Shown piece after piece: positions 877 through 21,324 of a stretch of 56,956 bases of DNA; within the stretch, counting starts at the first letter, position 1, and each line of letters begins with the position of its first letter. The stretch is from Minisyncoccia bacterium (GTDB lineage: Bacteria > Patescibacteriota > Minisyncoccia > Phycocordibacterales > GWA1-40-21), in NCBI GenBank assembly GCA_049287185.1, contig JBAQFI010000014.1, forward strand, positions 1 to 56,956. Direction: 5' to 3'. Under the pieces are notes generated by a model, which was not told the origin of the DNA, searched no databases, and saw only the letters and a program-made list of their open reading frames with translations. The position numbers were made by a program, and so were the translations under genes.

Positions 877-1311
877 ATGAAAATAGTAAGTAAAAGTCTC
901 AAAGAGACGAGAGACATTGCTAAGGATTATATAGAAAAAGAGTTAAAAGCTGATAAAGATCAGTCATTGGTGGTGTGCTTGTCAGGTGATTTAGGCTCTG
1001 GTAAAACTGCTTTTACTCAAGAAACCTGCAGAATTTTAGGAGTTGAAGATCCTGTTACTAGCCCAACCTTTGTACTACAGAAAAAATATAAAATTAATCA
1101 CCCAGAATTTAATGAGCTAGTGCATATTGATGCTTATCGGTTGAATGATGGAGAGGAACTTAAAAGAATTGGTTGGAAGGAATTATTAACTAATCCTAAA
1201 CGTGTGGTTTTTATTGAGTGGCCAGAAATTGTCGCCGATGTATTAACTGGAAAGGAGAAGAAAATTGGGTTTAAGTTTGTGTCGGAGAATGAGAGAGAAA
1301 TAAATTATTAG
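877..1311 (+). CDS. tsaE: tRNA t6A biosynthesis ATPase TsaE (YjeE)
   Basis: P-loop GDLGSGKT, SPTF motif, size about 145 aa. Confidence 0.8.
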   Translation: MKIVSKSLKETRDIAKDYIEKELKADKDQSLVVCLSGDLGSGKTAFTQETCRILGVEDPVTSPTFVLQKKYKINHPEFNELVHIDAYRLNDGEELKRIGWKELLTNPKRVVFIEWPEIVADVLTGKEKKIGFKFVSENEREINY

Positions 1312-1343
1312 TACGTATCACATTGAAATATCAACCCTCTCAA

Positions 1344-1436
1344 CGTCATTGCGAGGAGGTCGTCCGACGAAGCAATCCAGGATTAATCTTAATTTTAAGA
1401 TGGATTGCCACGGGTGAGTACACCCTCGCAATGACG
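1344..1436. repeat. palindromic intergenic repeat, family A (CGTCATTGCGAGG...CCTCGCAATGACG)
   Basis: Inverted termini GTCATTGCGAGG / CCTCGCAATGAC with an inner AATCCAGG / GGATTGC pair. Related copies lie at 7176-7270 and 42555-42643. Confidence 0.85.
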
Positions 1437-1469
1437 GAAAGGAAACAGCCTTCATAATTTGAATTAAAA

Positions 1470-3887
1470 ATGAGCAAAAATAACAAGACAAAAAGACTGG
1501 TATTGCTAGATGTTCATGCGATTCTTCATCGTGCCTATCATGCTTTGCCAGAATTTACGACAAGCGCCGGTGAACCAACTGGTGGACTCTATGGTTTGTC
1601 CACGATGCTTCTAAAAATCATTGATGATTTGAAGCCAGATTATATTGTGGCGTGTTATGACTTACCAAAACCGACTTATCGTCATGAAGCCTACAAAGAT
1701 TATAAAGCGGGTCGGGCCAAGGCCGATGAAGCATTGATTAGCCAAATTAAACGTTCCTACGATATTTTTAAAGCACTAAACATTCCAATTTTTGCTGAGG
1801 CTGGTTTTGAGGCTGACGATTTGGTGGGAACTTTTGTAGAACAAAATAAAAATAAAAAAGATTTAGATATTGTGATTGCATCAGGCGACATGGACACACT
1901 ACAGCTCGTAGAGGGTGACAAGGTGAGAGTTTATACTTTAAAAAAGGGAATTAAAGACACCATTATTTATAATGAAGATGGTGTTCGTGAGCGTTTTGGT
2001 TTTGATCCAAAACTTTTGACTGATTATAAAGGCCTCCGCGGAGACCCATCGGATAATATTATTGGTATTGCCGGTATTGGAGAAAAAACTGCTACCGATC
2101 TAATTGTAAATTTTGGTTCCATTGAAAGTATTTATAAACAATTGGAAAAGGACCCAAAAGTTTTACTCAAAGCGGGAATCAAAGAAAGAATTGTTAAACT
2201 TTTAGAGGAAGGAAAGGAGGAGGCTTTGTTTTCCAAGATGCTCGGCTCGATTCGTCGAGATGCGCCAGTTAAATATGAACTACCTGAAAAAAGTTGGAGT
2301 GAAGAGGTTTCTGTCGAGACAGTTACTGATTTATGGAACAGTTTAGAATTTAGAACCTTGGCCCAAAGGCTCAAAGATATTTTATTAAAATATAAAACAG
2401 TAGGGGATAAAACTGGAGTTATAAAAGAAAAAAGTCTGGCCGAGGAAAAAGAAAAAGTTGAGGCTTTTTTTGCTGGAGTCAGTGAAAGAGAAATCGAAGA
2501 AACACTGCTCGGTATGTGGCTTATCAATTCCAATATGACGAGTCCTGACAAGGAGGATTTGCTAAATTATGCCAATCGAAAAAGTTTTAAAGAATTAAAA
2601 TCTGAAATTGAAGTGGAATTGGATAAACGAGGACTGAAAAAAGTTTATGAAGAAATAGAAAAACCTTTGATTCCGATTGTGACAGAGATGAATAATCTGG
2701 GTATTTTAATTGATAAGAAAAAGCTAGCGCTTTTAGGTAAGGAATATCATGTGGAGTTGGATAAAAAAGAAAAAGAGATTTGGAAACTAGCCGGTGGAGA
2801 ATTTAATGTTAGTTCACCAAAACAAGTTGGAGAAATAATCTTTGAGCGCCTTGGTTTAAAAGCTAAAGGTCAGAAGAAAACGGGGAGTGGAGCCTTATCT
2901 ACTAAAGAATCAGAACTAGAAAAATTGCGTGATGAGCACCCAATCATTAGTTTGATTTTGGAATATCGTGAATTGGACAAACTTCTTTCGACTTATATTG
3001 ATAACATCCCAAAACTACTTGATGCTAACAATCGTTTACACACCAAGTTTTTACAGGCTGGTACAACAACTGGAAGAATGGCCTCTCAAGAACCAAATCT
3101 ACAGAATATTCCCAACAAAACAGATTTAGGTCGGATGATTCGTCAGTCTTTTATTGCTGACAAAGGTAAGAAATTAGTGGCTTTTGATTATTCCCAGATT
3201 GAACTTCGTATTGCCTCTTTTCTTTCTGGTGATGAAAAACTATTAGATATTTTTCGCAAAGGGCAGGATATTCACACCGCTGTAGCCATGTCGGTTTTCA
3301 ATGTTAAAGCTGAAGAAGTCGATAAAGAAAAACGTCGCCGAGCCAAGGTAATTAACTTCGGTATTATTTACGGCATGGGTATTAATGCCTTGCGCGTGCA
3401 GCTGGGAACAGATCGAGCTGAGGCCCAAGCCTTCTACGACCAATATTTTAAAGAATTTGCCGGTCTAGCTAATTATTTAGACCAAGTAAAAGTTTTTGCC
3501 AACCAGAATGGTTATACGGAAACTTTGTTTGGACGCCGCCGTTATTTTGAAGGTTTGAAGTCTAAATTACCTTTTATTCGAGCTGCTGCTGAAAGAATGG
3601 CTATCAATGCCCCAATTCAAGGCACAGAAGCGGATATTGTTAAGTTGGCGATGATTGCCATAGATAAATATTTAGTCAAAGAAAAGCTGAAGGGAGATGT
3701 GCAAATGGTTTTACAAGTGCATGATGAATTGGTCTACGAAGTAAACGAAAAAATGGTTAAAAAAATAGAACCAGAAATCAAAAAAATAATGGAAAGTGTT
3801 GTCGATTTGAAATTGAGTAAAGGAGTAGTGTGTATTGCTGAAGCTTCAGTGGGAGATAATTGGGGAGAAATGAAAAAAATTAGTTAA
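1470..3887 (+). CDS. polA: DNA polymerase I
   Basis: An N-terminal 5'-3' exonuclease domain is followed by family A polymerase motifs (DYSQIELR, QVHDELV, RRxAKxxNFGxxYG). Confidence 0.95.
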   Translation: MSKNNKTKRLVLLDVHAILHRAYHALPEFTTSAGEPTGGLYGLSTMLLKIIDDLKPDYIVACYDLPKPTYRHEAYKDYKAGRAKADEALISQIKRSYDIFKALNIPIFAEAGFEADDLVGTFVEQNKNKKDLDIVIASGDMDTLQLVEGDKVRVYTLKKGIKDTIIYNEDGVRERFGFDPKLLTDYKGLRGDPSDNIIGIAGIGEKTATDLIVNFGSIESIYKQLEKDPKVLLKAGIKERIVKLLEEGKEEALFSKMLGSIRRDAPVKYELPEKSWSEEVSVETVTDLWNSLEFRTLAQRLKDILLKYKTVGDKTGVIKEKSLAEEKEKVEAFFAGVSEREIEETLLGMWLINSNMTSPDKEDLLNYANRKSFKELKSEIEVELDKRGLKKVYEEIEKPLIPIVTEMNNLGILIDKKKLALLGKEYHVELDKKEKEIWKLAGGEFNVSSPKQVGEIIFERLGLKAKGQKKTGSGALSTKESELEKLRDEHPIISLILEYRELDKLLSTYIDNIPKLLDANNRLHTKFLQAGTTTGRMASQEPNLQNIPNKTDLGRMIRQSFIADKGKKLVAFDYSQIELRIASFLSGDEKLLDIFRKGQDIHTAVAMSVFNVKAEEVDKEKRRRAKVINFGIIYGMGINALRVQLGTDRAEAQAFYDQYFKEFAGLANYLDQVKVFANQNGYTETLFGRRRYFEGLKSKLPFIRAAAERMAINAPIQGTEADIVKLAMIAIDKYLVKEKLKGDVQMVLQVHDELVYEVNEKMVKKIEPEIKKIMESVVDLKLSKGVVCIAEASVGDNWGEMKKIS

Positions 3888-3896
3888 TTAAAATCA

Positions 3897-4643
3897 ATGA
3901 TATATTTTTTAGTAGGCGATAATACTGAAATAGGGATTGCAAAAGCTCAAAAAGTGATTGAAGCTTTGCAAAAAAAGAAACCGGACGCGGCGTATTTTAA
4001 AATTGATGAATTAACTTGGGATGAAAGTAAAATGGAAGAGTGGATTGCTAGCCAAGGTTTGTTTGCTAGTAACTTTTTAATTTATGTTGATAGGGTTTGT
4101 AAAAACAAGGAAGCCAAAAGTTATTTACTAAAGAGACGTAAAGAACTAGCCGAGTCTGAAAATTTCTTTGTTATTCTAGAAGGTAAGTTGGATAAAGATA
4201 CTGAAGGGAAGTTAGCCAAAGTGGCTTGGAAGACTGAAGAATTTAATAAACCAGAAAAAACCAATTTAACTAAAGAAGAAAAACTAGAGGCGATTGGTGA
4301 AAAAATAGACTTTTTTGAGTATGCTGATATTTTTGCTTCAGGTGACAAAAAGAAAATCTGGGTCATGTATCGAGAAGCGGTAGACAAAGGTGTGCCAGCT
4401 GAGGAAATTCATAGTATTTTCTTTTGGCAGGCGAGAACTATGCTTGCGGCTACTTTGGCTAAAAATCAAGCAGAATCAGGCTTAAAACCCTATCCCTATC
4501 AGAAAGGTAAAAGTGCAGCCGAAAATTATGGGGAAGAAAGATTAAGGAAAATTAATAGTCAGTTCGTCTCAATTTATCATGAAGCCCATCGCGGGGAAGT
4601 GGATTTGTATAATGCGTTAGAGAAGTTGATTTTGGAGATGTAG
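3897..4643 (+). CDS. possible DNA polymerase III delta subunit-like protein (short HolA-like)
   Basis: Lies immediately downstream of polA. The N-terminus (IYFLVGDN...GLFASNFLIYV) resembles HolA domain I. Similarity is weak. Confidence 0.4.
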   Translation: MIYFLVGDNTEIGIAKAQKVIEALQKKKPDAAYFKIDELTWDESKMEEWIASQGLFASNFLIYVDRVCKNKEAKSYLLKRRKELAESENFFVILEGKLDKDTEGKLAKVAWKTEEFNKPEKTNLTKEEKLEAIGEKIDFFEYADIFASGDKKKIWVMYREAVDKGVPAEEIHSIFFWQARTMLAATLAKNQAESGLKPYPYQKGKSAAENYGEERLRKINSQFVSIYHEAHRGEVDLYNALEKLILEM

Positions 4644-4702
4644 AGGAAAACCAGTAGGACTATTTATGAAAGTAGGAATCTGTCACAACCATTTTAAAAA
4701 TA

Positions 4703-4853
4703 AGTAGGACCGCTTCGCGTATCTTTTCTTCCTTCGTTTTGTCGTCACAAAACTCAGTCGAAACGCGGTCTCGAATTTCTCGCTGGTGCTCGAAATATAC
4801 TCGACCGTTCTCATCCTACTCGCAAGACACGTAGGTGTCTTGCTTGGGCGCAC
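4703..4853 (-). repeat. tRNA-3'-end-linked structured element, type C body (Lys copy)
   Basis: On the minus strand, GTGCGCCCA is the complement of the tRNA-Lys acceptor 3' strand. A hairpin (AGCAAGACAC/GTGTCTTGCG) follows, then AGTAGGA, the complement of the T-stem 3' strand. Next comes a 47 nt core nearly identical to 11893-11939. The element ends GCGGTCCTACT, echoing tRNA ...TTCCTACT. Confidence 0.8.
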
Positions 4854-4887
4854 AAAATAAAAAACCACTTTCGTTATTTAAAATTGT

Positions 4888-5005
4888 GGTCACAGGTTTT
4901 TTCTTGCTAGAAAAACTCGCGACCCCGCCTCGCGCCGTCGCGCTCCGGCTCGCACACTGCAAACCAAAACCACCAGGTGTCTGGTGGTTTTTAATATTTG
5001 CAGTG
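4888..5005 (-). repeat. tRNA-3'-end-linked structured element, type A body (Lys copy)
   Basis: Directly 3' of tRNA-Lys there is a long hairpin plus T-run, followed by the conserved blocks GGCGGGGTCGCGAG, a hairpin and GTGACC. The same blocks occur in the His, Val and Ser copies. Confidence 0.7.
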
Positions 5006-5078
5006 TGCGCCCAGTAGGAATCGAACCTACGACCAATTGCTTAAAAGGCAACTGCTCTACCAGCTGAGCTATGGGCGC
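5006..5078 (-). tRNA. tRNA-Lys (anticodon UUU)
   Basis: Manual cloverleaf: GCGCCCA acceptor, GCTCAGCTGGTAGAGC D arm, anticodon loop CTTTTAA, T arm GTAGGTTCGATTCCTAC. No CCA is encoded. Confidence 0.9.
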
Positions 5079-5140
5079 ATACTTGAGTAACGCTTGAGAA
5101 TATAACAAGAAAAATGATTTTAGTCCAGTTTTAAAATTAA

Positions 5141-5169
5141 TTGACCCGGCATATTCATTGGAGTAATAT
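5141..5169 (+). promoter_or_regulatory. candidate sigma70-like promoter
   Basis: TTGACC, 17 nt spacer, TAATAT, upstream of the CDS at 5218. Confidence 0.35.
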
Positions 5170-5217
5170 TAATTTAGAATAGAATAATTTAAAAACTCTA
5201 AAAAAGGATGGGGGATA

Positions 5218-5664
5218 ATGAAAAAACTCATTATTGTAAGACACGGTCACTACGGAGACGATTTACGTCTTAATGACTATGGTCGCTCTGCTATTAACAC
5301 ACTGGCTACCAAGTTGGTACCGGAAGTTAATGAAAAATCAAGACTCATTCTCACTTCTACAGCCGATCGGGCTCGTGAAAGTGCGGAAATTATGAGTATT
5401 GTTTTGGGCACGAGATACGAGGAACATAGGGTTCTTTGGTCCGACAGTGAACATAATTGGAATTTGGTTTGGGCATTGAACTTGGTTCATAAGCACGAGC
5501 ATGTTGAAATTCTGACCCTCGTCACTCATTTTGAGTACGCAGAATACTTCCCGTCCTATTTTGGAAAGGAATTTCTAAAAACAGAGTTCAAGTCCCATGA
5601 GATCAATAAAGCTGAGGCATGGATTATTGATTGTCCACTGAAAACCCTGAGACATGTTTGTTAG
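5218..5664 (+). CDS. histidine phosphatase superfamily protein (PGAM-like), short form
   Basis: RHG motif (IIVRHGHYG), second Arg (TADRARESA), distal His (LVTHFE). GGATGGGGG RBS. Confidence 0.7.
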   Translation: MKKLIIVRHGHYGDDLRLNDYGRSAINTLATKLVPEVNEKSRLILTSTADRARESAEIMSIVLGTRYEEHRVLWSDSEHNWNLVWALNLVHKHEHVEILTLVTHFEYAEYFPSYFGKEFLKTEFKSHEINKAEAWIIDCPLKTLRHVC

Positions 5665-5692
5665 TTTAATTCTGAATTTTATGCAAGAGTTG

Positions 5693-5728
5693 ACCCTACT
5701 ATTACAATCGTAATCAGTAGGGTTTTTC
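5693..5728 (+). terminator. intrinsic terminator
   Basis: CCCTACT...AGTAGGG hairpin followed by TTTTT. Confidence 0.6.
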
Positions 5729-5814
5729 TTTTGTTGACTTTTGCATCTCAGAGCGTTAGGGTAATTGCTAGTACTTATAAACATAGTGTTTATTTGTAAA
5801 AGGGAGTTCTTTAC

Positions 5815-6141
5815 ATGAAAGATATAAGTGAAAAAATAGAAAGACTTTTCTGTCTTCCAAATTGTATCCGCTTTATAGTCGTCGCAACTTTTTTGATTGA
5901 TATCCTGCACGCTATATTAGTGCAAGTGTTTTCCGGGTCATTTATAAGCATATTCGAATATCATCTTTATTTTAAGGTGAGCTTCGATAAGTTTCTTGTC
6001 GATTGTTTTTGTTTTATACCCTGGTCGTTTGTCATAGCCGGTTGTCTCTTTGGAATATTTGAAAATTTAATGATGTTTATTAAATTTTTAAACAAGACGT
6101 TTTGTCGGACAAATAAACAATTACGGACAAAAGTTTCTTAA
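5815..6141 (+). CDS. hypothetical membrane protein
   Basis: ORF with hydrophobic segments. A competing antisense ORF (5575-5910) overlaps its start. No family is recognised. Confidence 0.35.
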   Translation: MKDISEKIERLFCLPNCIRFIVVATFLIDILHAILVQVFSGSFISIFEYHLYFKVSFDKFLVDCFCFIPWSFVIAGCLFGIFENLMMFIKFLNKTFCRTNKQLRTKVS

Positions 6142-8681: not shown

Positions 8682-9944
8682 CTATTTTTTAAGTTTTCTT
8701 AATTCTTCTCTTGCCACTTCAGCATCATTCCAAGCCTCCTTTTTACCATTTGCTCTCATAATATAAGGATCTGTACCTTTGCCAGTAATTAGTACGGCAT
8801 CGCCCGGTTTGGCCTCTTTGAAGGCGGTAGCTATGGCCTGTCGGCGATCCATGATGATTTCTAAGGGTTTTTCGGTGATTTCTTTGGCCATATCTTCAAC
8901 AATTCCACGTGGATCATCATCATATGGGTCTTCATCAGTTAGAATAATATGTGAAGCATGTTTCTCAGCGATATTAGCCATTTCAATTCTTTTCCATTTA
9001 TCTCGGCCACCACCGGTGTTTCCAAGGACGGCAATAATGCGAGAAGATTGGAAAACCTCATAAAGTTTTTCTAGTGAATCTGGAGTATGAGCATAATCAA
9101 CAATAACAGTAAAATTTTGACCCTCATCGATTTTTTCTACGCGACCACGAATACCAGAGAATTTTTCCACCGCGCGTTTAATAATTTGATCAGAAACATT
9201 TTGACTTTTAGCAAAAGTAGCCGCTGCTAAAATATTATAAATGTTAAATAAACCAGAAAGTGGAGAAGTAATTTTTTGTCCGCCCCAAGTAAACTCACAA
9301 CCCTCTTTTTTAATTTCAAAAGGCTCAACATCCTTGATGGAATAGGGAAGTTTAGTTGGAACATTAATATTTAAAAATTTATTTCCTTCTTTATCATCAC
9401 TATTTGAAACAATTATTCGGTTTGGCTTCTTAGATTTTTCTAAAGCTTTGGCAATTTCCAATTTTGCAGCTAAATAATTTTCATAGGAACCATGAGATTC
9501 AATATGCTCAGGGGCTAAGTTGGTAAAAATTAGAGCATCCAAGTTTATAAACTTATGTCGATATTGAACAACTGCTTGAGAAGTGATTTCTAAAATGACA
9601 TATTCACATTTTGCGTTTACTGCCTGACGAAGAAACTTCTGCACAAAAAAGCGACCAGGTAAGGTCATTTTGTACATATTATTTTTTGAGTCATCACCAA
9701 TTTTGAAACGCAAAGTTCCAGCTAAAGCAGTTTTGAAACCAGCTTCTTCTAAAATAGCATTAATAATCTCGGCAGTTGAAGTCTTGCCCTTGGTACCAGT
9801 GATGGCAATAACCTTTATTTTTCGACTGGGGAAACGATAAATCAGGGCTGCTAGAAAGGCTAATTTCCAATGATATATCGGTTGAAGGGAGGAAAATATC
9901 TTGGTTGGTATAATTTTTTTTATTTGGCGCAAAATTTTATTCAT
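8682..9944 (-). CDS. Mur ligase family protein (MurE-like)
   Basis: ATP-binding motif ITGTKGKTST and DYAHTPDSL. Only 420 aa, and it lacks a long N-terminal domain. Confidence 0.7.
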   Translation of the reverse strand: MNKILRQIKKIIPTKIFSSLQPIYHWKLAFLAALIYRFPSRKIKVIAITGTKGKTSTAEIINAILEEAGFKTALAGTLRFKIGDDSKNNMYKMTLPGRFFVQKFLRQAVNAKCEYVILEITSQAVVQYRHKFINLDALIFTNLAPEHIESHGSYENYLAAKLEIAKALEKSKKPNRIIVSNSDDKEGNKFLNINVPTKLPYSIKDVEPFEIKKEGCEFTWGGQKITSPLSGLFNIYNILAAATFAKSQNVSDQIIKRAVEKFSGIRGRVEKIDEGQNFTVIVDYAHTPDSLEKLYEVFQSSRIIAVLGNTGGGRDKWKRIEMANIAEKHASHIILTDEDPYDDDPRGIVEDMAKEITEKPLEIIMDRRQAIATAFKEAKPGDAVLITGKGTDPYIMRANGKKEAWNDAEVAREELRKLKK

Positions 9945-11738: not shown

Positions 11739-11829
11739 AATTACTCCTTTCAAGTTTTAAACTATCTATTTAGAGAATATATTAAAAGACAGGGAATATC
11801 AATTAATTTGGAGTTAAGACAAAATAATT

Positions 11830-11985
11830 CACTTGGACCGCTTCGCTTATCTTCCCAGCGCTCGGTTTCGCCGTCGCTTCACCGAGCTGGGACGCGGTCT
11901 CGAATTTCTCGCTGGTACTCGAAATATACTCGACCGTTCGATTCCTAACTTTTGATATACTCATATCAAAAGTTAAGTGGGGGGA
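11830..11985 (-). repeat. tRNA-3'-end-linked structured element, type C body, matched to tRNA-Arg(GCG)
   Basis: On the minus strand: TCCCCCCACTT, a hairpin (AACTTTTGATAT/ATATCAAAAGTT) and AGGAATCGAAC. Joined together these are the reverse complement of the last roughly 22 nt of the tRNA at 20407-20478. The 47 nt core matches 4764-4810 with one mismatch. The element ends GGTCCAAGTG, echoing tRNA ...TTCCAAGTG. Confidence 0.8.
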
Positions 11986-12037
11986 CATTATAAAAATCGG
12001 CTTTTCTTAAAAGAAAGCCGATTTTTATAATGTCCCC
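11981..12037. terminator. 24 bp perfect palindrome (bidirectional terminator-like) containing a displaced tRNA 3'-end remnant
   Basis: GGGGACATTATAAAAATCGGCTTT ... AAAGCCGATTTTTATAATGTCCCC. The arm at 12031-12040 reads GTGGGGACA on the minus strand, resembling the tRNA-Arg(GCG) 3' end GTGGGGGGACA. Confidence 0.7.
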
Positions 12038-12180
12038 ACAACAAGAAATTATTATAACCATTTTGAGTGATAGAAATTATATAGAAAGCTTATATGAGAA
12101 AGTCAGATATATAAGAGAGATGAGTGTGAATTAAATTACTATCTCCACTTAGTATATTAAATTTCTTAAAAACATAAAAA

Positions 12181-14316
12181 TTACCATTTTATTTCGAGTT
12201 CCTTAAATGCATTTTTGATTAATAATCTCCCTTCTCTCTGATAGAAACTATATTTTATTGGGCCAGTGGCTCTTTTGGTCGATTTTGTAAAAGCGTGGGA
12301 CAATTCACTTTCAAGTCTTTTTTCGTGAATACTTTTAGTCATTTTGAATATTAACGGATATTTTCTTTCAAATCGGCTATTTTTACTAGATACTGATCCA
12401 CCAATATTTCCTAAAGTGTAATTACCGATTGTCACATCATGCTTAAATAATGATTTCAGTAACAGATCATTAAAGACGTCCATGTAATTTACCCATGCAG
12501 TAATATCAATACCTGCTTTTCTACAACAATTAAAAGCTTTCTTTCGAGCCTCTTCATAATCTGTCCCGAAGATACTTCGCCAATTAATATTTTTAATTTC
12601 ATTGTTCATCCATTTGTTAAAATAGATTTCTATACTACACCAGTTAGCACCAAAGGGTAGCCTTTCTATTAAACCAGACTCTTTGAGAATATTTGCCGCC
12701 CGCAAATTAATATTTTTTTTAATACCCATAATTGGTAACTCACGTTTAACCATGATTACAGCTGCAACGCAAGCGACATCGTTTGACTTATCTCTTATTT
12801 TTTCATTTATGATTTCAGTGAGTCTTTTTGGGCTCAAATTATCATTATCTAGAGCTTGAACTAAAGAAGATCTTACATACCATTCTTTCGGCCTGAGTGC
12901 AAAATCCATTTGCTTTGAAGTGTTGATTAGGTTTTCTCTTATAATGGGTTTCCCAATTGCTATGTGTAAAGCAACTTCAGACTCTAATACTCTTGGATGC
13001 CACTCTTTTTTTAATAAACGATTAAGGCGATTTTTTTGGTCATGTCTAATTCTTCCATCAAGTGTTTCAAAAAGTCCTGCCGTTATGGTTGTATAGACGG
13101 GTTGGCTGTTTATTTCCTTAATAATTAGATTCACGATTGTTTTCGGAAGAAACTTGTATCGCTGAAAATATTGAAAAACTGCTTCAAAATTAGCTGGGTA
13201 TTCCATAAAAATACGCCAGATACGGTAATTTATTTGAGAAGAGGGAATGATTTGACTAAGCGTGAATTTAAAAAGTGTCTGATTGGTTATTTTATATTCT
13301 TTTGTTAATGAAATTATTTTCTTTCGTAGTTTAGTTTGGTTGGTCACCCTCCATTCAGTGGGTGGATCTGTAGGTCTACTTATAGATTTAAGCTCATTCT
13401 CAATATCTTTCACTTTATGTATTTTGATTTTATTACTTTGTGGAAAAAGACCAATATTTTTACTTAGCCTATCAAAACGGACTAACATTTTACGTAATTC
13501 TTTTTCTGATTTTGCAAATAATCTTATATCATCAACATAACGCATATAGCGTATGTGTGGTCGGCTACCATAACCGACATCAAAATATTTTAATACGACT
13601 TCTGATAGAATTCCTGAACTTAATGGACCTTGAGGAATACCGTGATTATGATAGATTTGAGTTGATTCGTTTCCAGTCCACTTACTTAAACAGTTCGTTA
13701 GTAAATCAATGAATTCATTATCGCAATTTATTTCCTTTAGAAAATGACGTAATACTTTATGATCAATACTGTCGTAACAGGCGGTTAAATCAAAGCTAGC
13801 TGTATACACTAGTCCTTTTTTAAAAGATTCTCTCGCCATCTCATTAAACTGCTGATATCCATCAGACCATTTTCTATAAAACCAAACGCTACTTTTACCA
13901 GCATAAAGATTACCAAAATTTTTCACATAATAGTTAGATTTGATTTTTGGAAAAAGATGTTCGGCAATAACATTAGTCATTGCCTGATAAATAATCTGAT
14001 CTTCAATAGTAAGTAGTGTGTATGGACGAAGAACCCCCGATGGTTTAGGTATAAAAATTTTACATCCATGGCTTGGCTCGTAAATATTTTTCTGGATTTG
14101 TTCTGATAAATCCTTAATGATGTAATCTTCTATTAAAAGATAATTAGAGTAAAGATCACGAAAATACCCTTTATATCTCCTATCAGGGTTACTTTTAATC
14201 CAACGCCAAGCACGTTGGATATTTCTTCTATCAAGAACCTCGTTAATTGTTGAAGTATAATTTGGCATATATAATTGATAATATCCATTTAATACACCAT
14301 AATAAAAGGATATCAA
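12181..14316 (-). CDS. reverse transcriptase with a C-terminal extension of about 400 aa (Abi/UG-like, not a group II intron or retron type)
   Basis: RT motifs are readable: KPSGVLRPYT (1-2), FDLTACYDSIDH (3), GIPQGPLSSGILSEV (4), YMRYVDDIRLF (5) and GLFPQSNKIKI (6-7). The ORF start at 14316 is TTG, with an alternative ATG at 14268. Confidence 0.85.
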   Translation of the reverse strand: MISFYYGVLNGYYQLYMPNYTSTINEVLDRRNIQRAWRWIKSNPDRRYKGYFRDLYSNYLLIEDYIIKDLSEQIQKNIYEPSHGCKIFIPKPSGVLRPYTLLTIEDQIIYQAMTNVIAEHLFPKIKSNYYVKNFGNLYAGKSSVWFYRKWSDGYQQFNEMARESFKKGLVYTASFDLTACYDSIDHKVLRHFLKEINCDNEFIDLLTNCLSKWTGNESTQIYHNHGIPQGPLSSGILSEVVLKYFDVGYGSRPHIRYMRYVDDIRLFAKSEKELRKMLVRFDRLSKNIGLFPQSNKIKIHKVKDIENELKSISRPTDPPTEWRVTNQTKLRKKIISLTKEYKITNQTLFKFTLSQIIPSSQINYRIWRIFMEYPANFEAVFQYFQRYKFLPKTIVNLIIKEINSQPVYTTITAGLFETLDGRIRHDQKNRLNRLLKKEWHPRVLESEVALHIAIGKPIIRENLINTSKQMDFALRPKEWYVRSSLVQALDNDNLSPKRLTEIINEKIRDKSNDVACVAAVIMVKRELPIMGIKKNINLRAANILKESGLIERLPFGANWCSIEIYFNKWMNNEIKNINWRSIFGTDYEEARKKAFNCCRKAGIDITAWVNYMDVFNDLLLKSLFKHDVTIGNYTLGNIGGSVSSKNSRFERKYPLIFKMTKSIHEKRLESELSHAFTKSTKRATGPIKYSFYQREGRLLIKNAFKELEIKW

Positions 14317-14567
14317 CTATAATTCCAAGTTTACCTTTACCTAGAATTAAAGCAAATTATTGTTTTAGTCAGATTAAAAGTAGAGTAGAAAAAATCATGG
14401 AAAATCATGGATTTTATATCTATTCAAAAAGGCGGGAAAAGGTATGAAATTCTAACTTGCTACGTTATCCACCAGATAGCACATAAAGAACGTCAAATTA
14501 GGGCGTTTAGACGCTTAGAAACGATGTTAGTTACCTATTGCTGTTTAGCTTATTCAGTACTTTTAAT

Positions 14568-15194
14568 TTATTCCTTAGGTATCCAATTATAATCTTTATC
14601 TATCTCGCTTAACTGTAATGAAAATTTTTGAATTTCATTTAAAATACAAATCTTAATAAAATCTTCATAACCAGAACCTGAAAGACTACCTATATTTTGA
14701 AGTTCGCAAGCAACCTTTCTGTGTGTACTCCATGAATCCTTATATTTTTTAAGATTATCAATTATATAATCGTATTCCGCTGTGGGAGCAAAATAATCTA
14801 AATTTTCTCTCGTTATTTTCGTATTATTTAAATCCTTGATAAGTTTTTCAAATTGTTGATTTGAAGCTAATTCATTTTTATTAAATAAATTAGACAGACA
14901 TGTTTTATAATGATCTGGACAAATCTCATTGATTTCCTTCAAATACACATCACTGCTTATCAAAAGATTTTCATATACATCTTTTTGTGTTTCTGTGAGT
15001 GTATACATTTTACTCCATTCAAATCCTGCATTTTGGCATTCCTCAATAGTAATATTCTTCTGTAAAGATTTTTGACTATTGAAATAAATAAACAGGGCAA
15101 CTATTACTAGTAAAAATATTATGATGCAAATGGCACCTTTTTTAAAGAGATTTTCCTTCACAAAAGAGAGAGGGTTTTTAATTTTTTTTATCAT
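14568..15194 (-). CDS. N-terminally anchored hypothetical protein with conserved Cys pairs (possibly DUF1311/LprI-like)
   Basis: One TM helix (AICIIIFLLVIVALFIYF) followed by a helical Cys-containing ectodomain. The family assignment is weak. Confidence 0.45.
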   Translation of the reverse strand: MIKKIKNPLSFVKENLFKKGAICIIIFLLVIVALFIYFNSQKSLQKNITIEECQNAGFEWSKMYTLTETQKDVYENLLISSDVYLKEINEICPDHYKTCLSNLFNKNELASNQQFEKLIKDLNNTKITRENLDYFAPTAEYDYIIDNLKKYKDSWSTHRKVACELQNIGSLSGSGYEDFIKICILNEIQKFSLQLSEIDKDYNWIPKE

Positions 15195-15221
15195 ATTTTT
15201 TATTATACTTTTTTAGGTGGT

Positions 15222-15446
15222 CTATATAAGTCTATCGTTAGCATTTTTATCAGCATTATCAACAAAATAATCCGCCGTTAAACTAACATTCTTTGGCATA
15301 TCCCTGTATATATCTTCCGCGAGCCTTTTTGTCTCAAGTAATATGCCATTGTGCTGTCTAATCATTTCAAGCGCTATATAACTCTTCAGTTTGAAGTAGA
15401 AAACGATTATTAAAACTATTATTGTAATGAGGATGGTGTATATCAT
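15222..15446 (-). CDS. small single-pass membrane protein
   Basis: 74 aa with N-terminal TM helix MIYTILITIIVLIIVFYF. Lies 27 nt from the next gene in the same orientation. Confidence 0.45.
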   Translation of the reverse strand: MIYTILITIIVLIIVFYFKLKSYIALEMIRQHNGILLETKRLAEDIYRDMPKNVSLTADYFVDNADKNANDRLI

Positions 15447-15472
15447 AATGTTTTTTATTAAATTATTAAAAC

Positions 15473-16081
15473 CTATTTACGTTTTACCTTACCTAATGAC
15501 CAAATAATAAAATCTAATGCTTTAATATCAGATATTTTTGATTCACTTACATTAAACCTTTTTCTAAACTTTAAAATTACTTTTTTAACCTTACTATCCT
15601 TTAATAAATTTGAGTACATCTGCTTTAAATATTCATATATTTCTATGCAGGATTTGACCTTTTCTCTCTTAGTTTCGCCAGTTCTTTTTTTGTGAATTAC
15701 ATCTGAGACTTCTGCATCAAAAATAGGATTATTATTATCCAGTGTGTGTAATAGTTTAGTGGCGAAGCTAAATTGAATTGTATTTTGACCTTTCCGGTTG
15801 GGAAATTTATATAACTCTAATAAAATAGACCCTAAATCGTTTTTCTTTTTAGTTAATAATTTAAAGTAAAAATCTTTTATATCGTCACCTAACCCAGCGT
15901 TATCTAATTTATAATAGGACCTGAAAACAAATTGGAATAATGTATTGTTTTTAATGTTATCTTTTTCGTGTTCATTTTTTAAAAATAAATAAATGCAAAT
16001 ACTCTCACAATTTATATTGGATAATATTTTGTCCTGATTGCCTAGGATCTCCTTTATTATTCTTTCTAATTCTTGAAGCAT
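15473..16081 (-). CDS. hypothetical protein (first gene of the minus-strand island cassette)
   Basis: 202 aa soluble Lys-rich ORF. No family is recognised. Confidence 0.45.
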   Translation of the reverse strand: MLQELERIIKEILGNQDKILSNINCESICIYLFLKNEHEKDNIKNNTLFQFVFRSYYKLDNAGLGDDIKDFYFKLLTKKKNDLGSILLELYKFPNRKGQNTIQFSFATKLLHTLDNNNPIFDAEVSDVIHKKRTGETKREKVKSCIEIYEYLKQMYSNLLKDSKVKKVILKFRKRFNVSESKISDIKALDFIIWSLGKVKRK

Positions 16082-16326
16082 TTGGTCGTATCTAAACGAC
16101 CTAGTAGTAAGGCACGAAAAATCCTCACACTAGGAAGGTTTTTAAGCCTATGTATCAGTTTCCCAATACAACGCACGATACGCCCTAATATGAGGGTTTT
16201 CTGTATCGTGCGATTATTGACCGTGCCACCAGCAAAAGCTAATGGGTTAGGTCCTACGGAATATTCAGTTGTCCATTAATATTAACATTTACAGGGCTTT
16301 CTGCAATAAATAAGTTACCAACTGCA

Positions 16327-17232
16327 TTGAGTTGTATGAGAATTAGTGAAATACTATATATTATGGTTAAAATTAGCAAGAAACAAAAAGGTGAGATAAA
16401 ACCGTATTTGGCGAATTTGGGTCTTATATTGGCGGTATACAATAAACTACTACAAACCCATAAAAATATAATTAATGATTTCGATAAAAAATACAGATTT
16501 TTGAGCTCTAAAAAAATGAGGAAGGAGAAACCTTATATATGGACACCAGATGGAAATATTATTATAGACACTAAATTTTTAAATAAACTCGACGACAAAA
16601 GTAGAAAAGACCTACTATTTATTAAAGATGAAATGACTAAAGACTTTAAAGAGAAAATATTACCTTTAGTTAATTTACCACTACATTTTCTTCCTTATTA
16701 TTGGAACTATATATTGTACAGAGATATAGACGCGCCAAAGAAAAACTTTTCTATAAATTTTCATCCAATTGATCCTAAATATGATTTAATAAAAAAAATG
16801 GACAGAGGCACACAGTATATTACTCTTAATATATATAAACCTCTCTCTACTAATGAAAAGAAAAAAGCACTTAGTCTAGTTGAGAGTATGGGAAAAAAGG
16901 CTTTTCCAAAATATATAAAAGATAAACTTAAGTTTGTTAATGATATAACTCGTGATCTTAGATTATATAATGATGCATCTGAAAGAAAACGTTCAAAAAC
17001 AACGATAGAATATACAGACTACTTAAAATTTTTAAAAAAAGAGGTGGAAAAAGGACGTTGCTCTGAAACTTCATTTAAACATACAGTATCTTTAAATCCC
17101 CATGATATTGATATAAAAAAAGAAAAAAGTATAACAAGTAAAGAGATTGGCAAGAAATTTAATTTAAAGGAAGCAAATGTAAAAAAGATTATAGAAAGAT
17201 ATAACAAAAAAATGTCACTTTATATCAACTAG
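16327..17232 (+). CDS. hypothetical Lys-rich protein (island)
   Basis: 301 aa ORF divergent from the RT cassette. No family is recognised, and the true start may be the internal Met of MVKISKKQKGE. Confidence 0.45.
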   Translation: MSCMRISEILYIMVKISKKQKGEIKPYLANLGLILAVYNKLLQTHKNIINDFDKKYRFLSSKKMRKEKPYIWTPDGNIIIDTKFLNKLDDKSRKDLLFIKDEMTKDFKEKILPLVNLPLHFLPYYWNYILYRDIDAPKKNFSINFHPIDPKYDLIKKMDRGTQYITLNIYKPLSTNEKKKALSLVESMGKKAFPKYIKDKLKFVNDITRDLRLYNDASERKRSKTTIEYTDYLKFLKKEVEKGRCSETSFKHTVSLNPHDIDIKKEKSITSKEIGKKFNLKEANVKKIIERYNKKMSLYIN

Positions 17233-17506
17233 TACCGTGACACTTTTTTAACAAGAGGATGTCACGATGATTTAAATACTAGTTTTATATTGAGCCCAGA
17301 GTCAAAGTGATTCTGGGTGATGCTTTTTAACAAAGCCCCAACATCACCTTTGGGGCTTTATTATGGATTCAAAAGAAGAAATAAAAAAAGAAGAAGAGAT
17401 AATAAGCGATGCGGCCGAATCGCTCGCTTCAATTTTTGTTTCTTTATTTGACCAACAATTTGAGAGAAAAAACAAAGACTCCCAAATCACTAATTAATTT
17501 ACAAAT

Positions 17507-17719
17507 ATGTTAAAAAAAAATATAACTAAGAATGGGTGTTTATCAGATACTGAGTGGATGCTTTGGTTCGATATGGATGATGCTGCGAGAGAAATATTAC
17601 GGGGTAGAACGATAGATTCTAAGAGAGTTCATGAGGATTCAAATTTTACTATTTTGTATGATTGTAAAACCAGCGATTTTACCCTCACATATACTCTTAA
17701 AGGGAAACACGCTAATTAG
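17507..17719 (+). CDS. hypothetical small protein (island)
   Basis: 70 aa ORF. No family is recognised. Confidence 0.35.
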   Translation: MLKKNITKNGCLSDTEWMLWFDMDDAAREILRGRTIDSKRVHEDSNFTILYDCKTSDFTLTYTLKGKHAN

Positions 17720-17787
17720 CAGGTTAATTTAGTTTTTAGTTTTTTAAACCCTGGGGTATTAGAAACTGAAAACTAATAAAAAAGTAT

Positions 17788-18861
17788 ATGGAAATTGCAA
17801 AAATAATCGAAGGAATGACAAAAGACCTAGAAAGTAAGACTAACTCGCTTGTCTCTGTTGAACAGATATTGAAGCACGACTTTGGTCCTGAATTATGGAC
17901 TGTGGCTGAATTAATACCCCAAGAATCAATTACTGCCATTACGGGAGCACCAAAATCATTCAAAACATGGCTTGTGCTAGATATTGCCAAATGTATCGCT
18001 AAGGGCACGGATTTCTTAGGAAAATTTAAGACTAGTCAGGGTCGAGTACTTATTATCGATAGAGATAATAATTTACGCCACATTCAAAAACGGCTCAAAA
18101 TGCTCGGATTTGAAAAGGAAGAAATTCTATACCATGTAGGAGAGGGTGAGTTTCAGATTGATAAGGATAAAGACTTCCAGGAGTTATTAAAGACAGTAAG
18201 TGAACAAAAAATTAGTTTGGTGATATTAGATTCTCTCGTGCGGATTCATTCAGGAGATGAGAATGAGTCACGATACATTAACAAGCTAATGACTGCCTTT
18301 AGAAAAGTAACAACTTTGGGTGCCACAATTATTTTTCTACATCATAACCGTAAGGAAAGTCTAAATACACAAAGCACAACCAATAGCGTACGTGGTTCGT
18401 CAGATATTTTTGCCGGTCTTGATTGTCTTCTACAAGTAACCAAGCCAGAAAAGGATTCTCTGTACATCACCCAATCGAAACTAAGAACCGGAGAAGAAAT
18501 GGAACCTTTTAAGGTTCAGATAAATAAAACTGAAGAGTCTATGGAGCTTGTATATGCTGGTAAAAGTGATTTTGGAAGTAAGGACACCTATGAAGTAAAG
18601 ATTATTATTGCTGAGCTATTAGAAGACAAAAAAGAAATGACACGTGAAGAAATAATTAAAGAATTTTCTGAACAATACAAGCCAGTAATAATTAATCTTT
18701 CACTAAAAGAACTTGAATTGTCAGAGAAAATTATTAAAAAGATAGGACCTCATAATAAACATTCTTATGTATTAAACGCAAATTCTACACTAAAAAGTGA
18801 AAAGATTGAAGTTAAAGTGCATAACCCTGTTGATATGAATTTATTAAAAAAGGATAATTAA
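17788..18861 (+). CDS. RecA-superfamily ATPase (RepA / AAA_25-like) typical of integrative and plasmid replication modules
   Basis: Walker A ITGAPKSFKTW, Walker B LVILDSL, sensor region FLHHNRK. Confidence 0.7.
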   Translation: MEIAKIIEGMTKDLESKTNSLVSVEQILKHDFGPELWTVAELIPQESITAITGAPKSFKTWLVLDIAKCIAKGTDFLGKFKTSQGRVLIIDRDNNLRHIQKRLKMLGFEKEEILYHVGEGEFQIDKDKDFQELLKTVSEQKISLVILDSLVRIHSGDENESRYINKLMTAFRKVTTLGATIIFLHHNRKESLNTQSTTNSVRGSSDIFAGLDCLLQVTKPEKDSLYITQSKLRTGEEMEPFKVQINKTEESMELVYAGKSDFGSKDTYEVKIIIAELLEDKKEMTREEIIKEFSEQYKPVIINLSLKELELSEKIIKKIGPHNKHSYVLNANSTLKSEKIEVKVHNPVDMNLLKKDN

Positions 18862-18870
18862 AATTAAATT

Positions 18871-20511
18871 ATGAATCAAAATAAAGTTGCAGTTATATAT
18901 TGTAGAGTTTCCACGGACGAACAAGCCAAGGAAGGTTTGTCTATTGAATCGCAGGAACTTACTTGTCGAAGAAAAGCTGAAGAGGAGGGATATTCCGTTA
19001 TTGAAGTAATAAAAGATGAAGGTAAGAGTGGAAAAAATATTAATCGAGAGGGAATGAAAAATATTTTAAGGTTAGTGAATGAGAAAAAAATAAATGCTAT
19101 CTATTTGGTAAATACCGACAGGCTTTCCAGAAATGTAGCCGACCATATATATCTTACTGACCTCTTTAGAAAGAATAAAGTGTTGTTAAGATCAATAAAT
19201 CAACCAACATTAGATAGTTCAGCCACTTCCATAACTATGGATTTAATGATGGCAACAATGAACCAGTTTCAAAGATTGAATACAGCAGAAAAAGTTAAAT
19301 CGACAATGCATGAAAAAGCTAAAGCTGGTTATTACCCCAGTAAGGCTCCTGTCGGCTACAAGAATGTCCAAGACTTAAATAAGTCGGAAAGATTTGCTAG
19401 AAAAACAATTATTATTGATGAAAAAGCAGCGGTCTTTGTTAGGGAAATTTTTAGACTGTATGCCACTGGCGAACACAATGCGGTTGAAGTCAGCGATATT
19501 GTCTACGATAAAGGATTTAGGAGTAGAGGTGGAAAGAAAGTATCGGACTCCAAAATCTATATGATGTTAAAAAATCGATTCTATATTGGAGAGATAAACT
19601 GGGGAGAAATACATATTCCTAAAGCTAAGCATGAGCCCTTAATTGAAAGAGTGGTATTTGATCAAGTTCAAAGTGTTTTGAATTCCCACAATAAGCATTC
19701 TTGTCGGCGGCGAAAGTACAAATGGTTGCTTAGTGGATTCCTTAGGTGCCATAAACATAATTCTAGATATACGGCTGAATGGCATTTAAACAAAAAGATT
19801 GCTTACTATCACTGTACGGTTAATGGTTGCGGTAAATTCTCCGAACAGGTAAAACTTGAAAATGCTATCGCTGAAAAGTTTAAGGACCTTGAGTTCAGCC
19901 CAGATTTTATTGAATTAGTTATTAGTAAGGCAAAAAACATCTTCTATGAACGAAGAGAGGTGTATGAAAGCAAGAGACAGGGTTTGATTAATCAAAAAAG
20001 TGCCTTCGAAGCCAAATTAAAGGTAGCGGAAACCAAATTACTATCAGGCACCTTAAAAGACGAGGACTTCAAAAGGATCCGAGAGGAAATTAAAAAAGAA
20101 ATTGACCTAATTGATAATAGGATAGTTGAAGTTCAGAAGGGTAAGGAGATAAATGTTGATATGACAAGGGAAATAATTGGGCTAACTAAGAATATTTTTG
20201 AAACATATCAAAAGGCTTTACCTGAGCTAAAAAGGTTATTTCTGGGTTTCTTTTGGGAAAGGTTTGAAGTATCTGAAGGTATTATAATAAATTCCATTCC
20301 CTCTATATTATTTAGCCAATTAATCAAACTTGAGAAGGCATATCAAAAAAGCCAAAATACTAATAAACCCAGTGATTTTGCTAATGTTATAAGTTCTACT
20401 GACTTGTCCCCCCACTTGGAATCGAACCAAGATTTTGAGTTCCGCAAACTCATGTCCTATCCATTGAACGATGAGGAGATGAACGGGAAGACTATAGCAC
20501 ACTTTTTTTAA
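18871..20511 (+). CDS. large serine recombinase (integrase)
   Basis: Resolvase catalytic motif VIYCRVSTDEQ, recombinase domain, Cys-rich zinc ribbon (CHKHN...YYHCTVNGC), coiled-coil region. The last roughly 35 codons run antisense through the tRNA at 20407-20478. Confidence 0.9.
   Translation: MNQNKVAVIYCRVSTDEQAKEGLSIESQELTCRRKAEEEGYSVIEVIKDEGKSGKNINREGMKNILRLVNEKKINAIYLVNTDRLSRNVADHIYLTDLFRKNKVLLRSINQPTLDSSATSITMDLMMATMNQFQRLNTAEKVKSTMHEKAKAGYYPSKAPVGYKNVQDLNKSERFARKTIIIDEKAAVFVREIFRLYATGEHNAVEVSDIVYDKGFRSRGGKKVSDSKIYMMLKNRFYIGEINWGEIHIPKAKHEPLIERVVFDQVQSVLNSHNKHSCRRRKYKWLLSGFLRCHKHNSRYTAEWHLNKKIAYYHCTVNGCGKFSEQVKLENAIAEKFKDLEFSPDFIELVISKAKNIFYERREVYESKRQGLINQKSAFEAKLKVAETKLLSGTLKDEDFKRIREEIKKEIDLIDNRIVEVQKGKEINVDMTREIIGLTKNIFETYQKALPELKRLFLGFFWERFEVSEGIIINSIPSILFSQLIKLEKAYQKSQNTNKPSDFANVISSTDLSPHLESNQDFEFRKLMSYPLNDEEMNGKTIAHFF
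20407..20478 (-). tRNA. tRNA-Arg (anticodon GCG), atypical C1-G72 acceptor
   Basis: Manual cloverleaf: CTCCTCA acceptor paired with TGGGGGG (two G-U pairs), D arm GTTC/GGAC, anticodon stem TGAGT/ACTCA with loop TTGCGGA, T arm CTTGGTTCGATTCCAAG, discriminator A. No CCA is encoded. Confidence 0.65.
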
Positions 20512-21052: not shown

Positions 21053-21140
21053 GGAGAGGTGGCAGAGTGGTCTAATGCACCGGTCTTGAAAACCGGAACC
21101 TGGGCAACCGGGTCGCGAGTTCGAATCTCGCCTTCTCCGC
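21053..21140 (+). tRNA. tRNA-Ser (anticodon UGA)
   Basis: GGAGAGG acceptor, anticodon stem-loop CCGGT CTTGAAA ACCGG, long variable arm, T arm GCGAGTTCGAATCTCGC. No CCA is encoded. Confidence 0.9.
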
Positions 21141-21324
21141 AACGATAAAATAACGCGAAAGCGTTATTTTTGTTGTGGAGAAGGAGTAATGTGTTTGAAC
21201 ACATTACGTCGAGATTCGAAAGGAATTTTGATATTTTGTTAGTAAACAAAATCAAAATTCCGGGGTCGAGGAAAAAATATGTGACGACATATTTTTGAGG
21301 TGACCGAACAGCCTTCTCCGCAAC
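21141..21324 (+). repeat. tRNA-3'-end-linked structured element (Ser copy, type A-like)
   Basis: The order is terminator hairpin, TGTGGAGAAGG (complement of the acceptor 3' strand), hairpin AGTAATGTGT/ACACATTACGT, then CGAGATTCGAA (21210-21220), the exact complement of T-loop plus stem. The body carries CGGGGTCGAG and GTGACC. A 14 nt perfect direct repeat GCCTTCTCCGCAAC lies at 21130-21143 and 21311-21324. Confidence 0.85.

Follow-up and report, generated by a model that had tools for sequence, protein, structure and literature searches.

A serine recombinase island between tRNA-Arg(gcg) and its companion element in a Minisyncoccia bacterium

Introduction

Genomic islands and prophages located at the 3' ends of tRNA genes typically carry their recombinase gene at the end facing the tRNA, bring along defence-type cargo, leave the tRNA intact and are missing from the corresponding site of related genomes. 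These features recur in an island of about 8.37 kb from a Minisyncoccia bacterium (Patescibacteriota; assembly GCA_049287185.1, contig JBAQFI010000014.1, positions 1 to 56,956; this entire stretch of 56,956 nucleotides is referred to as the window), which lies between a tRNA-Arg(gcg) gene and an orphan non-coding element at 11830-11987 matching the 3' end of this tRNA. The island differs from the usual cases in coding for a large serine recombinase instead of a tyrosine integrase, in lacking a long direct repeat of the tRNA 3' end, in an apparent crossover at or after the last base of the tRNA rather than in the T or anticodon loop, and in parting the tRNA from a dedicated companion element and its terminator hairpin.

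Elements mobilized by large serine recombinases, such as SCCmec with its Ccr proteins or the phiC31- and Bxb1-type elements, share with the island the set of Resolvase, Recombinase and zinc-ribbon domains, a short identity between the attachment sites attB and attP, and a dyad in attP. The recombinase of the window even yields matches to the NCBIfam models of CcrB and CcrC, albeit below threshold (122 bits, compared to an equivalog cut-off of 900). In contrast to these systems, the island targets a tRNA 3' end instead of rlmH or a phage-specific attB, contains a conserved AAA_25 partner gene, and its recombinase open reading frame (ORF) crosses the attachment junction.

The orphan element and its relatives behind other tRNA genes also resemble several known types of sequence. 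The primer-binding sites of retroelements with long terminal repeats (LTR) likewise complement the end of one particular tRNA over about 18-24 nt, with the match to its 3' part stopping in the T loop; in Ty1 and Ty3, complementarity to the T arm is split or extended. However, the elements contain neither LTRs nor a reverse transcriptase (RT), adjoin the gene of the matched tRNA and are complementary to the genomic trailer rather than to CCA where the latter is not encoded, as in Val and Arg-gcg, and this identification was rejected on all three features (CCA-inclusive complementarity, LTR and RT). A conserved scaffold combined with a locus-matched sequence in every copy is known from the omega RNAs of TnpB and IscB and from the bridge or seek RNAs of IS110/IS1111. 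The elements differ from these in the absence of an adjacent TnpB, IscB or DEDD recombinase gene, of a two-loop architecture and of any Rfam match, and in that their matched segment is antisense to upstream sequence instead of being a read-out of the flank. An assignment as IS110/IS1111 bridge or seek RNA was discarded because of the missing DEDD gene and Rfam match and the size of the elements (150-250 nt, without an ORF). Further tRNA-tied non-coding RNAs are the 3' external transcribed spacers (3'ETS, e.g., 3'ETS-leuZ), which are also located in the trailer, and the T-box leaders. However, 3'ETS RNAs act as sponges of small RNAs and lack antisense complementarity to their own tRNA, while T-boxes read the anticodon and the NCCA end from a position upstream of mRNAs, whereas the elements would pair with the T loop, the T stem and the acceptor 3' strand; no T-box match was found for them in the Rfam search. 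An H/ACA-type guide RNA was also rejected, as the arms pair with contiguous tRNA sequence and the hairpin is absent in some members such as His-1 and L120 (an ACA box was not looked for).

Results

The orphan element matches tRNA-Arg(gcg)

Seven tRNA genes are predicted in the window by ARAGORN, among them an intact tRNA-Arg(gcg) at 20406-20478 (minus strand). The element at 11830-11987 (minus strand) was described in the initial annotation as lacking an adjacent tRNA, and the closest tRNA genes are indeed found at 5005 and 20406, with none within 6 kb. Read along the minus strand, it consists of TGTCCCCCCACTT (arm 1, 11987-11975, antisense to the acceptor 3' strand, the discriminator and CA), a perfect branch hairpin of 13 bp (11975-11946), AGGAATCGAAC (arm 2, 11946-11936, antisense to T loop and T stem), a conserved core of about 100 nt (11935-11836) and the short sense repeat CCAAGTG (11836-11830). 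The 13-mer AAGTGGGGGGACA is present at exactly two sites of the window, namely in the tRNA (20405-20417, minus strand) and, inverted, in the orphan element (11975-11987, plus strand); shuffled sequence gives a mean of 0.71 matches, even with two mismatches tolerated. The 10-mer GTTCGATTCC from the T loop and T stem is also contained in the element (11936-11945, plus strand), but it is common to tRNA-Lys and tRNA-Arg(tct) as well, so that only the 13-mer is diagnostic for tRNA-Arg(gcg). Of the split complement proposed initially, the 13-nt segment is exact (13/13), and the second segment agrees with the tRNA at 10 of 11 bases.

The six remaining tRNA genes, for which an order of tRNA, terminator and element had already been recognized, each precede on their own strand a hairpin, a segment antisense to the T arm and the acceptor 3' strand and, farther downstream, a sense repeat of the tRNA 3' end. 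Their own antisense matches (10-16 nt) and sense copies (8-21 nt) all lie within 600 nt downstream, and essentially none are found upstream. In the same scan, tRNA-Arg(gcg) is the only one of the seven that is followed by neither an antisense match nor a sense copy, and the orphan is located 8.4 kb away from its matched tRNA, whereas the six other elements are placed directly behind theirs. The match between the orphan and tRNA-Arg(gcg) is real and far beyond chance. Because the 13-mer is unique to this tRNA and the element, six sister pairs are present and tRNA-Arg(gcg) is left unpaired, the orphan observation is confirmed, and the element is, as judged from its sequence, the companion of this tRNA, which now lacks a hairpin and element of its own.

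A long hairpin with a U-run after the stem adjoins the orphan element at 11978-12040 (minus strand). It had been reported as a perfect palindrome of 24 bp (11981-12037) corresponding to the terminator hairpins of the other loci; this correspondence with the intact loci holds, and the same hairpin type is seen in metagenome loci (see below), but the arms are 27 nt long (11978-12004 and 12014-12040) and 96% complementary in a repeat search. The distal arm terminates in TGTCCCCACA on the plus strand, equivalent to TGTGGGGACA on the minus strand, which contains four G residues compared to six at the 3' end of tRNA-Arg(gcg). The fold of the orphan has a z-score of -4.45. A stretch of 43 nt in its core is nearly identical to the tRNA-Lys element, with one variable position, and occurs only in these two copies within the window.

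Island-free relatives and the ancestral locus

A search with RuvA identified three contigs from relatives (L208, L209 and L210) which code for a 66% identical RuvA and lack the island. In L208, tRNA-Arg(gcg) (1982-2054) ends with ...TTAGCGGGGGGACA and is followed by a hairpin of 46 nt and then by TGTCCCCCCG, a branch hairpin, CTAAGAATCGAAC, the core and TCTTAGCGGGG; L209 and L210 likewise contain the tRNA, the hairpin and the orthologous element at an island-free site. Inspection of island-free relatives had been suggested as a check in the initial annotation, and they show the tRNA directly followed by hairpin and element, as expected. The orthologous element scores 136 bits with the covariance model R1, and its core is 83% identical to window positions 11944-11836. 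The tRNA-Arg(gcg) genes of L208 and the window differ at three positions in the T stem and the first acceptor base (CTAAG/CTTAG-C versus CTTGG/CCAAG-T), and the two arms and the 3' repeat of the L208 element follow the tRNA of L208, just as the window arms follow that of the window. The sense repeat comprises 11 nt in L208, compared to the 7 nt of CCAAGTG in the orphan. Since the protein-coding DNA of the window and L208 shares only about 75% identity, the core is conserved, and the arms co-vary with the tRNA.

The gene order points in the same direction. The organism belongs to the Patescibacteria of the Parcubacteria/Paceibacteria type. Among GTDB species representatives, the closest ones reach only about 50% identity in RuvA, and two of them (L010 and L020) were used for synteny only. 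The order of the window (Lys, RuvA, Arg-gcg, Ser, Arg-tct, Val, Leu, His) is preserved as a mirror image in L010 (His, Leu, Val, Arg-tct, Ser-tga, then Arg-gcg, (Arg-ccg), RuvA ... Lys-ttt), tRNA-Arg(gcg) of L020 is located about 360 nt upstream of RuvA, and the gene order around the site is identical in L010, L020 and L208. Elements are absent altogether from L010 and L020. A scan of metagenomes with the 3'-terminal 22-mer of tRNA-Arg gave zero matches, and exact-protein look-ups for the 156-amino acid protein of the window and for its RuvA returned no record.

We therefore assign a probability of about 0.88 to the reconstruction in which the locus ancestrally consisted of tRNA-Arg(gcg), hairpin and element and was later split by an island inserting between tRNA and hairpin. 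Both the ancestral order and the location of the island at the tRNA 3' end had been proposed from the window and are supported by L208-L210 and the gene order.

A further contig, L207 (Logan ERR14794644, positions 1-310), is derived from a strain about 97% identical to window positions 11809-11990, with a RuvA protein of 99% identity. It carries a tRNA-Ser(tga) identical to window positions 21058-21141, followed by a different, Ser-matched type-1 element, and its homology to the window begins 21 nt past the 3' end of the orphan. This arrangement could reflect a rearrangement, element turnover or a second copy of tRNA-Ser.

Crossover and attachment sites

The 8.37-kb island entered at the end of the tRNA (...GGGGGGACA), between tRNA-Arg(gcg) and the hairpin, driven by the large serine recombinase that it encodes at the end abutting the tRNA, and brought in the AAA_25 gene, the LOOT RNA and the UG19 reverse transcriptase described below. 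Apart from the position of the crossover, this account is borne out by the comparisons above. Joining the two junctions yields an attB of ...CCAAGTGGGGGGACA continued by TTATAAAAATCGG..., and an attP of GGTTATAAtaatttCTTGTtgtggggACAAGtcagtagaacTTATAACa, in which an imperfect dyad (GGTTATAA...CTTGTTGTGGGGACAAG...TTATAAC) surrounds the shared core; the predicted junction of the excised circle connects ...TTGTTGTGGGGACA to AGTCAGTAGAAC. Large serine recombinases do not duplicate their target. The G-run comprises six residues at the attL junction on the tRNA side and four on the far side, from which we infer a crossover in or after ACA. With such a crossover, the GTGGGG at 12035-12040 within the attR junction core TGTGGGGACA (12031-12040, minus strand) is probably island-derived and most simply read as an attP arm (P arm), while the sequence from ACA onward belongs to the host. 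This view, which is based on the different G-runs and the attP dyad, replaces the earlier interpretation of GTGGGGACA as an eroded tRNA end by that of an attP-derived half-site. The related proposal that the same short sequence serves two kinds of insertion was not upheld either, as no copy of the tRNA-Lys 3' end is present on the island side of the recombinase in L212, one of the homologous islands presented below.

The island and its cargo

The integrated island (12041-20405) was recognized by its absence from the orthologous site in L208-L210, its composition (GC content of 0.27-0.32, compared to 0.34-0.385 in the flanks) and its gene content. The recombinase of 546 amino acids is encoded at 18871-20511 (plus strand) and contains Resolvase and Recombinase domains (Pfam, 1.8e-28 and 3.9e-12) as well as a Zn_ribbon_recom domain, which stays under its cut-off (0.0019). 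Convergent with the tRNA gene, its ORF passes the island boundary at residue 512 of 546 and extends through the antisense strand of tRNA-Arg, which encodes the last 35 residues; in the excised circle, these would be replaced by about 30 residues from the opposite end of the island. Immediately upstream of the recombinase lies its conserved partner, an AAA_25 ATPase gene (17788-18861, plus strand; Pfam 3.2e-27). The remaining cargo consists of a LOOT RNA (RF03000) at 16135-16253 (minus strand; 74.9 bits, compared to a gathering score of 46.4), a reverse transcriptase gene at 12181-14316 (minus strand) and three further ORFs without informative domains. The LOOT RNA is located just upstream of a 202-amino acid ORF with a weak match to DUF6308. 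The RT of 711 amino acids, whose database copy has 695, is a full-length member of UG19, as the RT_UG19 profile of PADLOC (2e-165) covers residues 24-711, and it also matches Pfam RVT_1. UG19 belongs to the class 1 UG/Abi RTs, and a defence role has been predicted for it (PMC9226505). The insertion itself is thus ordinary biology, i.e., a serine recombinase island with defence-type cargo at a tRNA 3' end.

Homologs of the recombinase were found in three other contigs (83% identity in L211, 70% in L212 and L213), each with an AAA_25 gene preceding the recombinase gene, and the same pairing is present in L214. In L211 and L212, the recombinase gene is convergent with a tRNA-Lys(ttt) gene, whose 3' end it adjoins or overlaps, and a GAACTTATAA(C) motif at a distance of 8-13 nt from the tRNA end is conserved in L211, L212 and the P' arm of the window island. 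The location at tRNA-Lys and the shared motif indicate that this island family targets tRNA 3' ends in general. The left end of the homologous island in L212 was searched for, but not located.

A second, independent split pair is apparent in L127 (Ga0209541_10009465, positions 367-5902), where an island of 5.3 kb separates tRNA-Tyr from its type-1 element, whose 3' repeat GAATCCTACCCGACGCACA equals the 3' end of tRNA-Tyr. This island codes for an unrelated large serine recombinase (27% identity) and contains a Schlafen/AlbA_2-HATPase_c_4 gene. Five additional contigs (L156, L166, L189, L089 and L185) contain type-1 elements with tRNA-like 3' repeats, but no tRNA on the fetched piece, and may represent more pairs split by insertions.

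A family of tRNA-trailing elements

The orphan is a member of a family of structured RNA elements, each located directly behind a tRNA gene and read in the same direction. With its 5' arm, an element is reverse complementary to the last 20-24 nt of the tRNA, from the T loop to the discriminator and trailer. A motif derived from the Val and His elements (type 1: AAAG[A/C]CGGA[G/C], hairpin, GAG[G/T]CGGGGTCG, hairpin, GTGACC) was used for scanning metagenomes and retrieved at least 120 loci. A tRNA gene is present on the same strand within 400 nt upstream in 100 of 122 motif instances, usually at a distance of 25-90 nt, and at least 18 amino acids are represented by these tRNAs among the matches listed. 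The bases preceding the motif are antisense to the T loop and T stem of the respective tRNA, and those following GTGACC repeat it from T-loop position 57 to the 3' end; this sense repeat is identical at 14 of 14 positions in 49 of 89 metagenome loci, and at 12 or more in 60 of them. Neither a relative of the recombinase nor the core motif was found in viral contigs.

The orphan represents a second type, together with a paralogous element behind tRNA-Lys(ttt) (4702-4858, minus strand), the orthologs in L208-L210 and an element behind tRNA-Arg(tct) in L171; the scores with the type-2 model R1 are 131, 128, 136 and 120 bits, respectively. If the cores are compared by halves (window 11836-11935 versus 4707-4806 for the Arg and Lys elements), the 5' halves of the window Arg and Lys elements are 98% identical, but the 3' halves only 66%, while the Arg elements of the window and L208 share 87% and 81%, and the window Lys and L171 Arg-tct elements 89% and 88%. 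The fact that the Arg and Lys 5' halves are nearly the same, whereas the Arg 3' half is closer to L208, suggests mosaic cores arising by exchange or homogenization between elements within a genome. One core lineage serves different tRNAs, and further core variants sit behind other tRNA genes.

No match of the orphan was obtained in Rfam 15 at gathering score, with only generic hairpins appearing at E<=10, and the sister elements gave no relevant match at E<=1. As no description of such tRNA-trailing elements was found in the full-text literature searched, the family is apparently undescribed.

Core structure

An alignment of 26 type-1 core sequences shows 84% of the cells paired, compared to 69% in shuffles. 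Pairing reaches 96.6% in the long core hairpin, where 10 of the 16 base pairs covary, one G-U wobble is invariant in all 26 sequences, and the M-K pair (M, A/C; K, G/T) is complementary in all 89 metagenome loci (55 C-G, 34 A-T). The covarying helices and the invariant wobble indicate an RNA read from the tRNA strand, and we infer that the core adopts an RNA-type structure on this strand. In 85 of the 89 loci, the antisense arm folds with the last 22 nt of the tRNA and the intervening spacer into a single long, branched hairpin (mean of -49 kcal/mol), and a U-run of at least four residues is present in 58 of the 89. In intact loci, this hairpin starts right behind the tRNA, with its base formed by the acceptor 3' strand paired to arm 1. 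An impression that the antisense arm is better conserved than the sense repeat was withdrawn, as both are equal over positions 57-63 (6.18 versus 6.26 of 7). A scan of the elements for promoters and terminators was uninformative.

Discussion

The split pair in the window represents a natural experiment, in which complementary arms specific to a single tRNA are separated from it and their pairing remains readable across 8.4 kb. Orthologous arms which change along with their tRNA support the view that structured RNAs matched to tRNAs form a genuine family, widespread in Patescibacteria, and split pairs such as those of Arg in the window and Tyr in L127 provide a handle for distinguishing between a cis and a trans action of the elements. 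In addition, these pairs indicate that small defence islands in reduced genomes repeatedly land at the boundary between tRNA and element.

In intact loci, the antisense arm and the 3' third of the tRNA would form one long hairpin, which probably doubles as terminator of the tRNA, given the U-run following the apical stem in most loci, and elements of the main type end by repeating the tRNA in sense orientation, from T-loop position 57 to its 3' end. It is conceivable that the companion elements are insertions themselves. Our preferred view, at slightly less than even odds, is that they are non-autonomous insertion elements specific for tRNA 3' ends, which persist and co-evolve with the tRNA rather than serving as essential host RNAs. 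This reading is suggested by the start of the repeat in the T loop, the classical crossover site of integrative elements, by the scar-like state of the repeat, which is perfect in about half of the loci and decayed in the rest, by the patchy distribution (no elements in L010 and L020, a different Ser element in L207) and by the tandem stacking of copies at tRNA-His. Several points weigh against it. A host function would account equally well for the vertical retention of the element in the window and L208, with its compensatory changes, and no partner or co-occurring protein of the elements was identified. Moreover, the mismatches between arm and tRNA show no bias for G-U (43 G-U versus 43 A-C); together with the equal conservation of arm and repeat, this indicates that the pairing may act at the DNA level, or that both copies decay after insertion.

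The elements might alternatively belong to the host as functional parts of the pre-tRNA 3' trailer, e.g., as cis-acting terminators, insulators or signals for processing or quality control that pair with the 3' third of the tRNA, in which case the orphan would be a recently disabled relic. The position of the elements on the tRNA strand 23-90 nt behind the gene, the pairing which runs unbroken through the genomic trailer into the apical hairpin, the frequent U-runs, the structural selection on the core and the ortholog kept with compensatory arm changes are all in line with such a role. Nevertheless, we consider it less probable, because the syntenic genomes L010 and L020 manage without any elements, strains of about 97% identity differ in the element at tRNA-Ser, copies occur in tandem at the His locus, and the sense copy looks like an insertion scar. 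In addition, a hairpin of -50 to -70 kcal/mol would compete with the folding of the tRNA if the two were co-transcribed.

A third possibility would be trans-acting guide RNAs, combining a 5' guide directed against the 3' end or gene of a tRNA with a scaffold for a protein encoded elsewhere, which could be a recombinase or nuclease guided by RNA, or else an effector that binds RNA. The complementary arm of about 20 nt is indeed followed by a conserved three-way-junction scaffold. By our reading of the alignment, tandem G-A pairs could arise in a conserved internal loop of this scaffold, where GGA faces GA, and a conserved bulge is predicted in hairpin 2. Furthermore, the same core lineage accompanies tRNAs that differ from genome to genome, and the orphan, which would still be functional, has retained its arms and an intact core. 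However, a recent insertion alone can explain the intact state of the orphan, the elements show no visible promoter of their own, the expected co-occurring protein was not identified, and the motif is missing from the viral contigs, which altogether makes this explanation unlikely. On a broader level, the elements may constitute an undescribed RNA-guided class specific for tRNA 3' ends in Patescibacteria, whose arm programmes a single tRNA gene or transcript for a protein encoded elsewhere, whose cores move and gain new arms, and whose orphan member still acts in trans; we offer this as a speculation with a small but appreciable chance of being correct.

Regarding the history of the locus, the preferred reconstruction of an island splitting the pair faces some reservations: the closest island-free relatives share only 66% identity in RuvA, so that the comparison is one between relatives rather than within a strain, the left island boundary is defined by a 9-nt similarity and by symmetry only, and the near-identical strain L207 contains tRNA-Ser with a Ser element at this place instead of tRNA-Arg. 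The latter marks the region as prone to rearrangement, and its history may be more complex. The element may accordingly have arrived at 11830-11987 by transposing itself or through a rearrangement in which the island played no part, as could be argued from the homology of L207 starting only 21 nt past its 3' end. This is very improbable, because joining position 20405 to 12041 restores collinearity with L208 (tRNA, ACA, hairpin, arm 1), both ends of the island agree with those of its homologs at tRNA-Lys, and the reconstructed attP is symmetric. Finally, the orphan follows the RT gene on the same strand, about 140-190 nt past the stop codon, which might suggest a template or non-coding RNA of this RT in the style of retrons, DRT2 or DRT9, with the tRNA-Arg match serving to target the tRNA, but there is next to no chance for this, as the closest RT homologs (68%, 66% and 54% identity) reside in unrelated neighbourhoods with less than 100 nt to the next downstream gene and no element, neither the ortholog in L208-L210 nor the six sister elements of the window are accompanied by an RT, and no non-coding RNA has been reported for UG19 (PMC9226505); a retron msr/msd or DRT RNA was thus refuted.

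Additional observations on the element family

Some loci deviate from the simple order of one element per tRNA. Behind tRNA-His of the window (30766-31210, plus strand), two complete type-1 elements are arranged in tandem and followed by a third, partial unit, and two full copies and a truncated one of GATTCTCTCTAGGCACCCA are found after the 3' end of the tRNA itself. A cut-down core resembling type 1 (AGCCGGAG...GGCGGGGTCG...GTGACC) is inserted between tRNA-Lys and its type-2 element (4860-4962, minus strand); it has the segment antisense to the acceptor, while the T-arm antisense and the 3' repeat are missing. A third core variant, consisting of GAAC[A/G]NCGGAGC, a hairpin, CGAG[G/C][C/T]GGTGCCCAGAC, a second hairpin and AGTCG[A/C]GGG, is located behind tRNAs with matched arms and 3' repeats in L150 (4605-4739), L107, L144, L194, L195 and L170. 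The family also extends to deposited genomes, as seen in the Parcubacteria contig LBUF02000016 (L009, GWA2_38_13b), which contains a type-1 element behind tRNA-Ser(cga) at 1583-1727 and a different, shorter element with a 3' repeat of 18 nt behind tRNA-Glu at 9060-9172.

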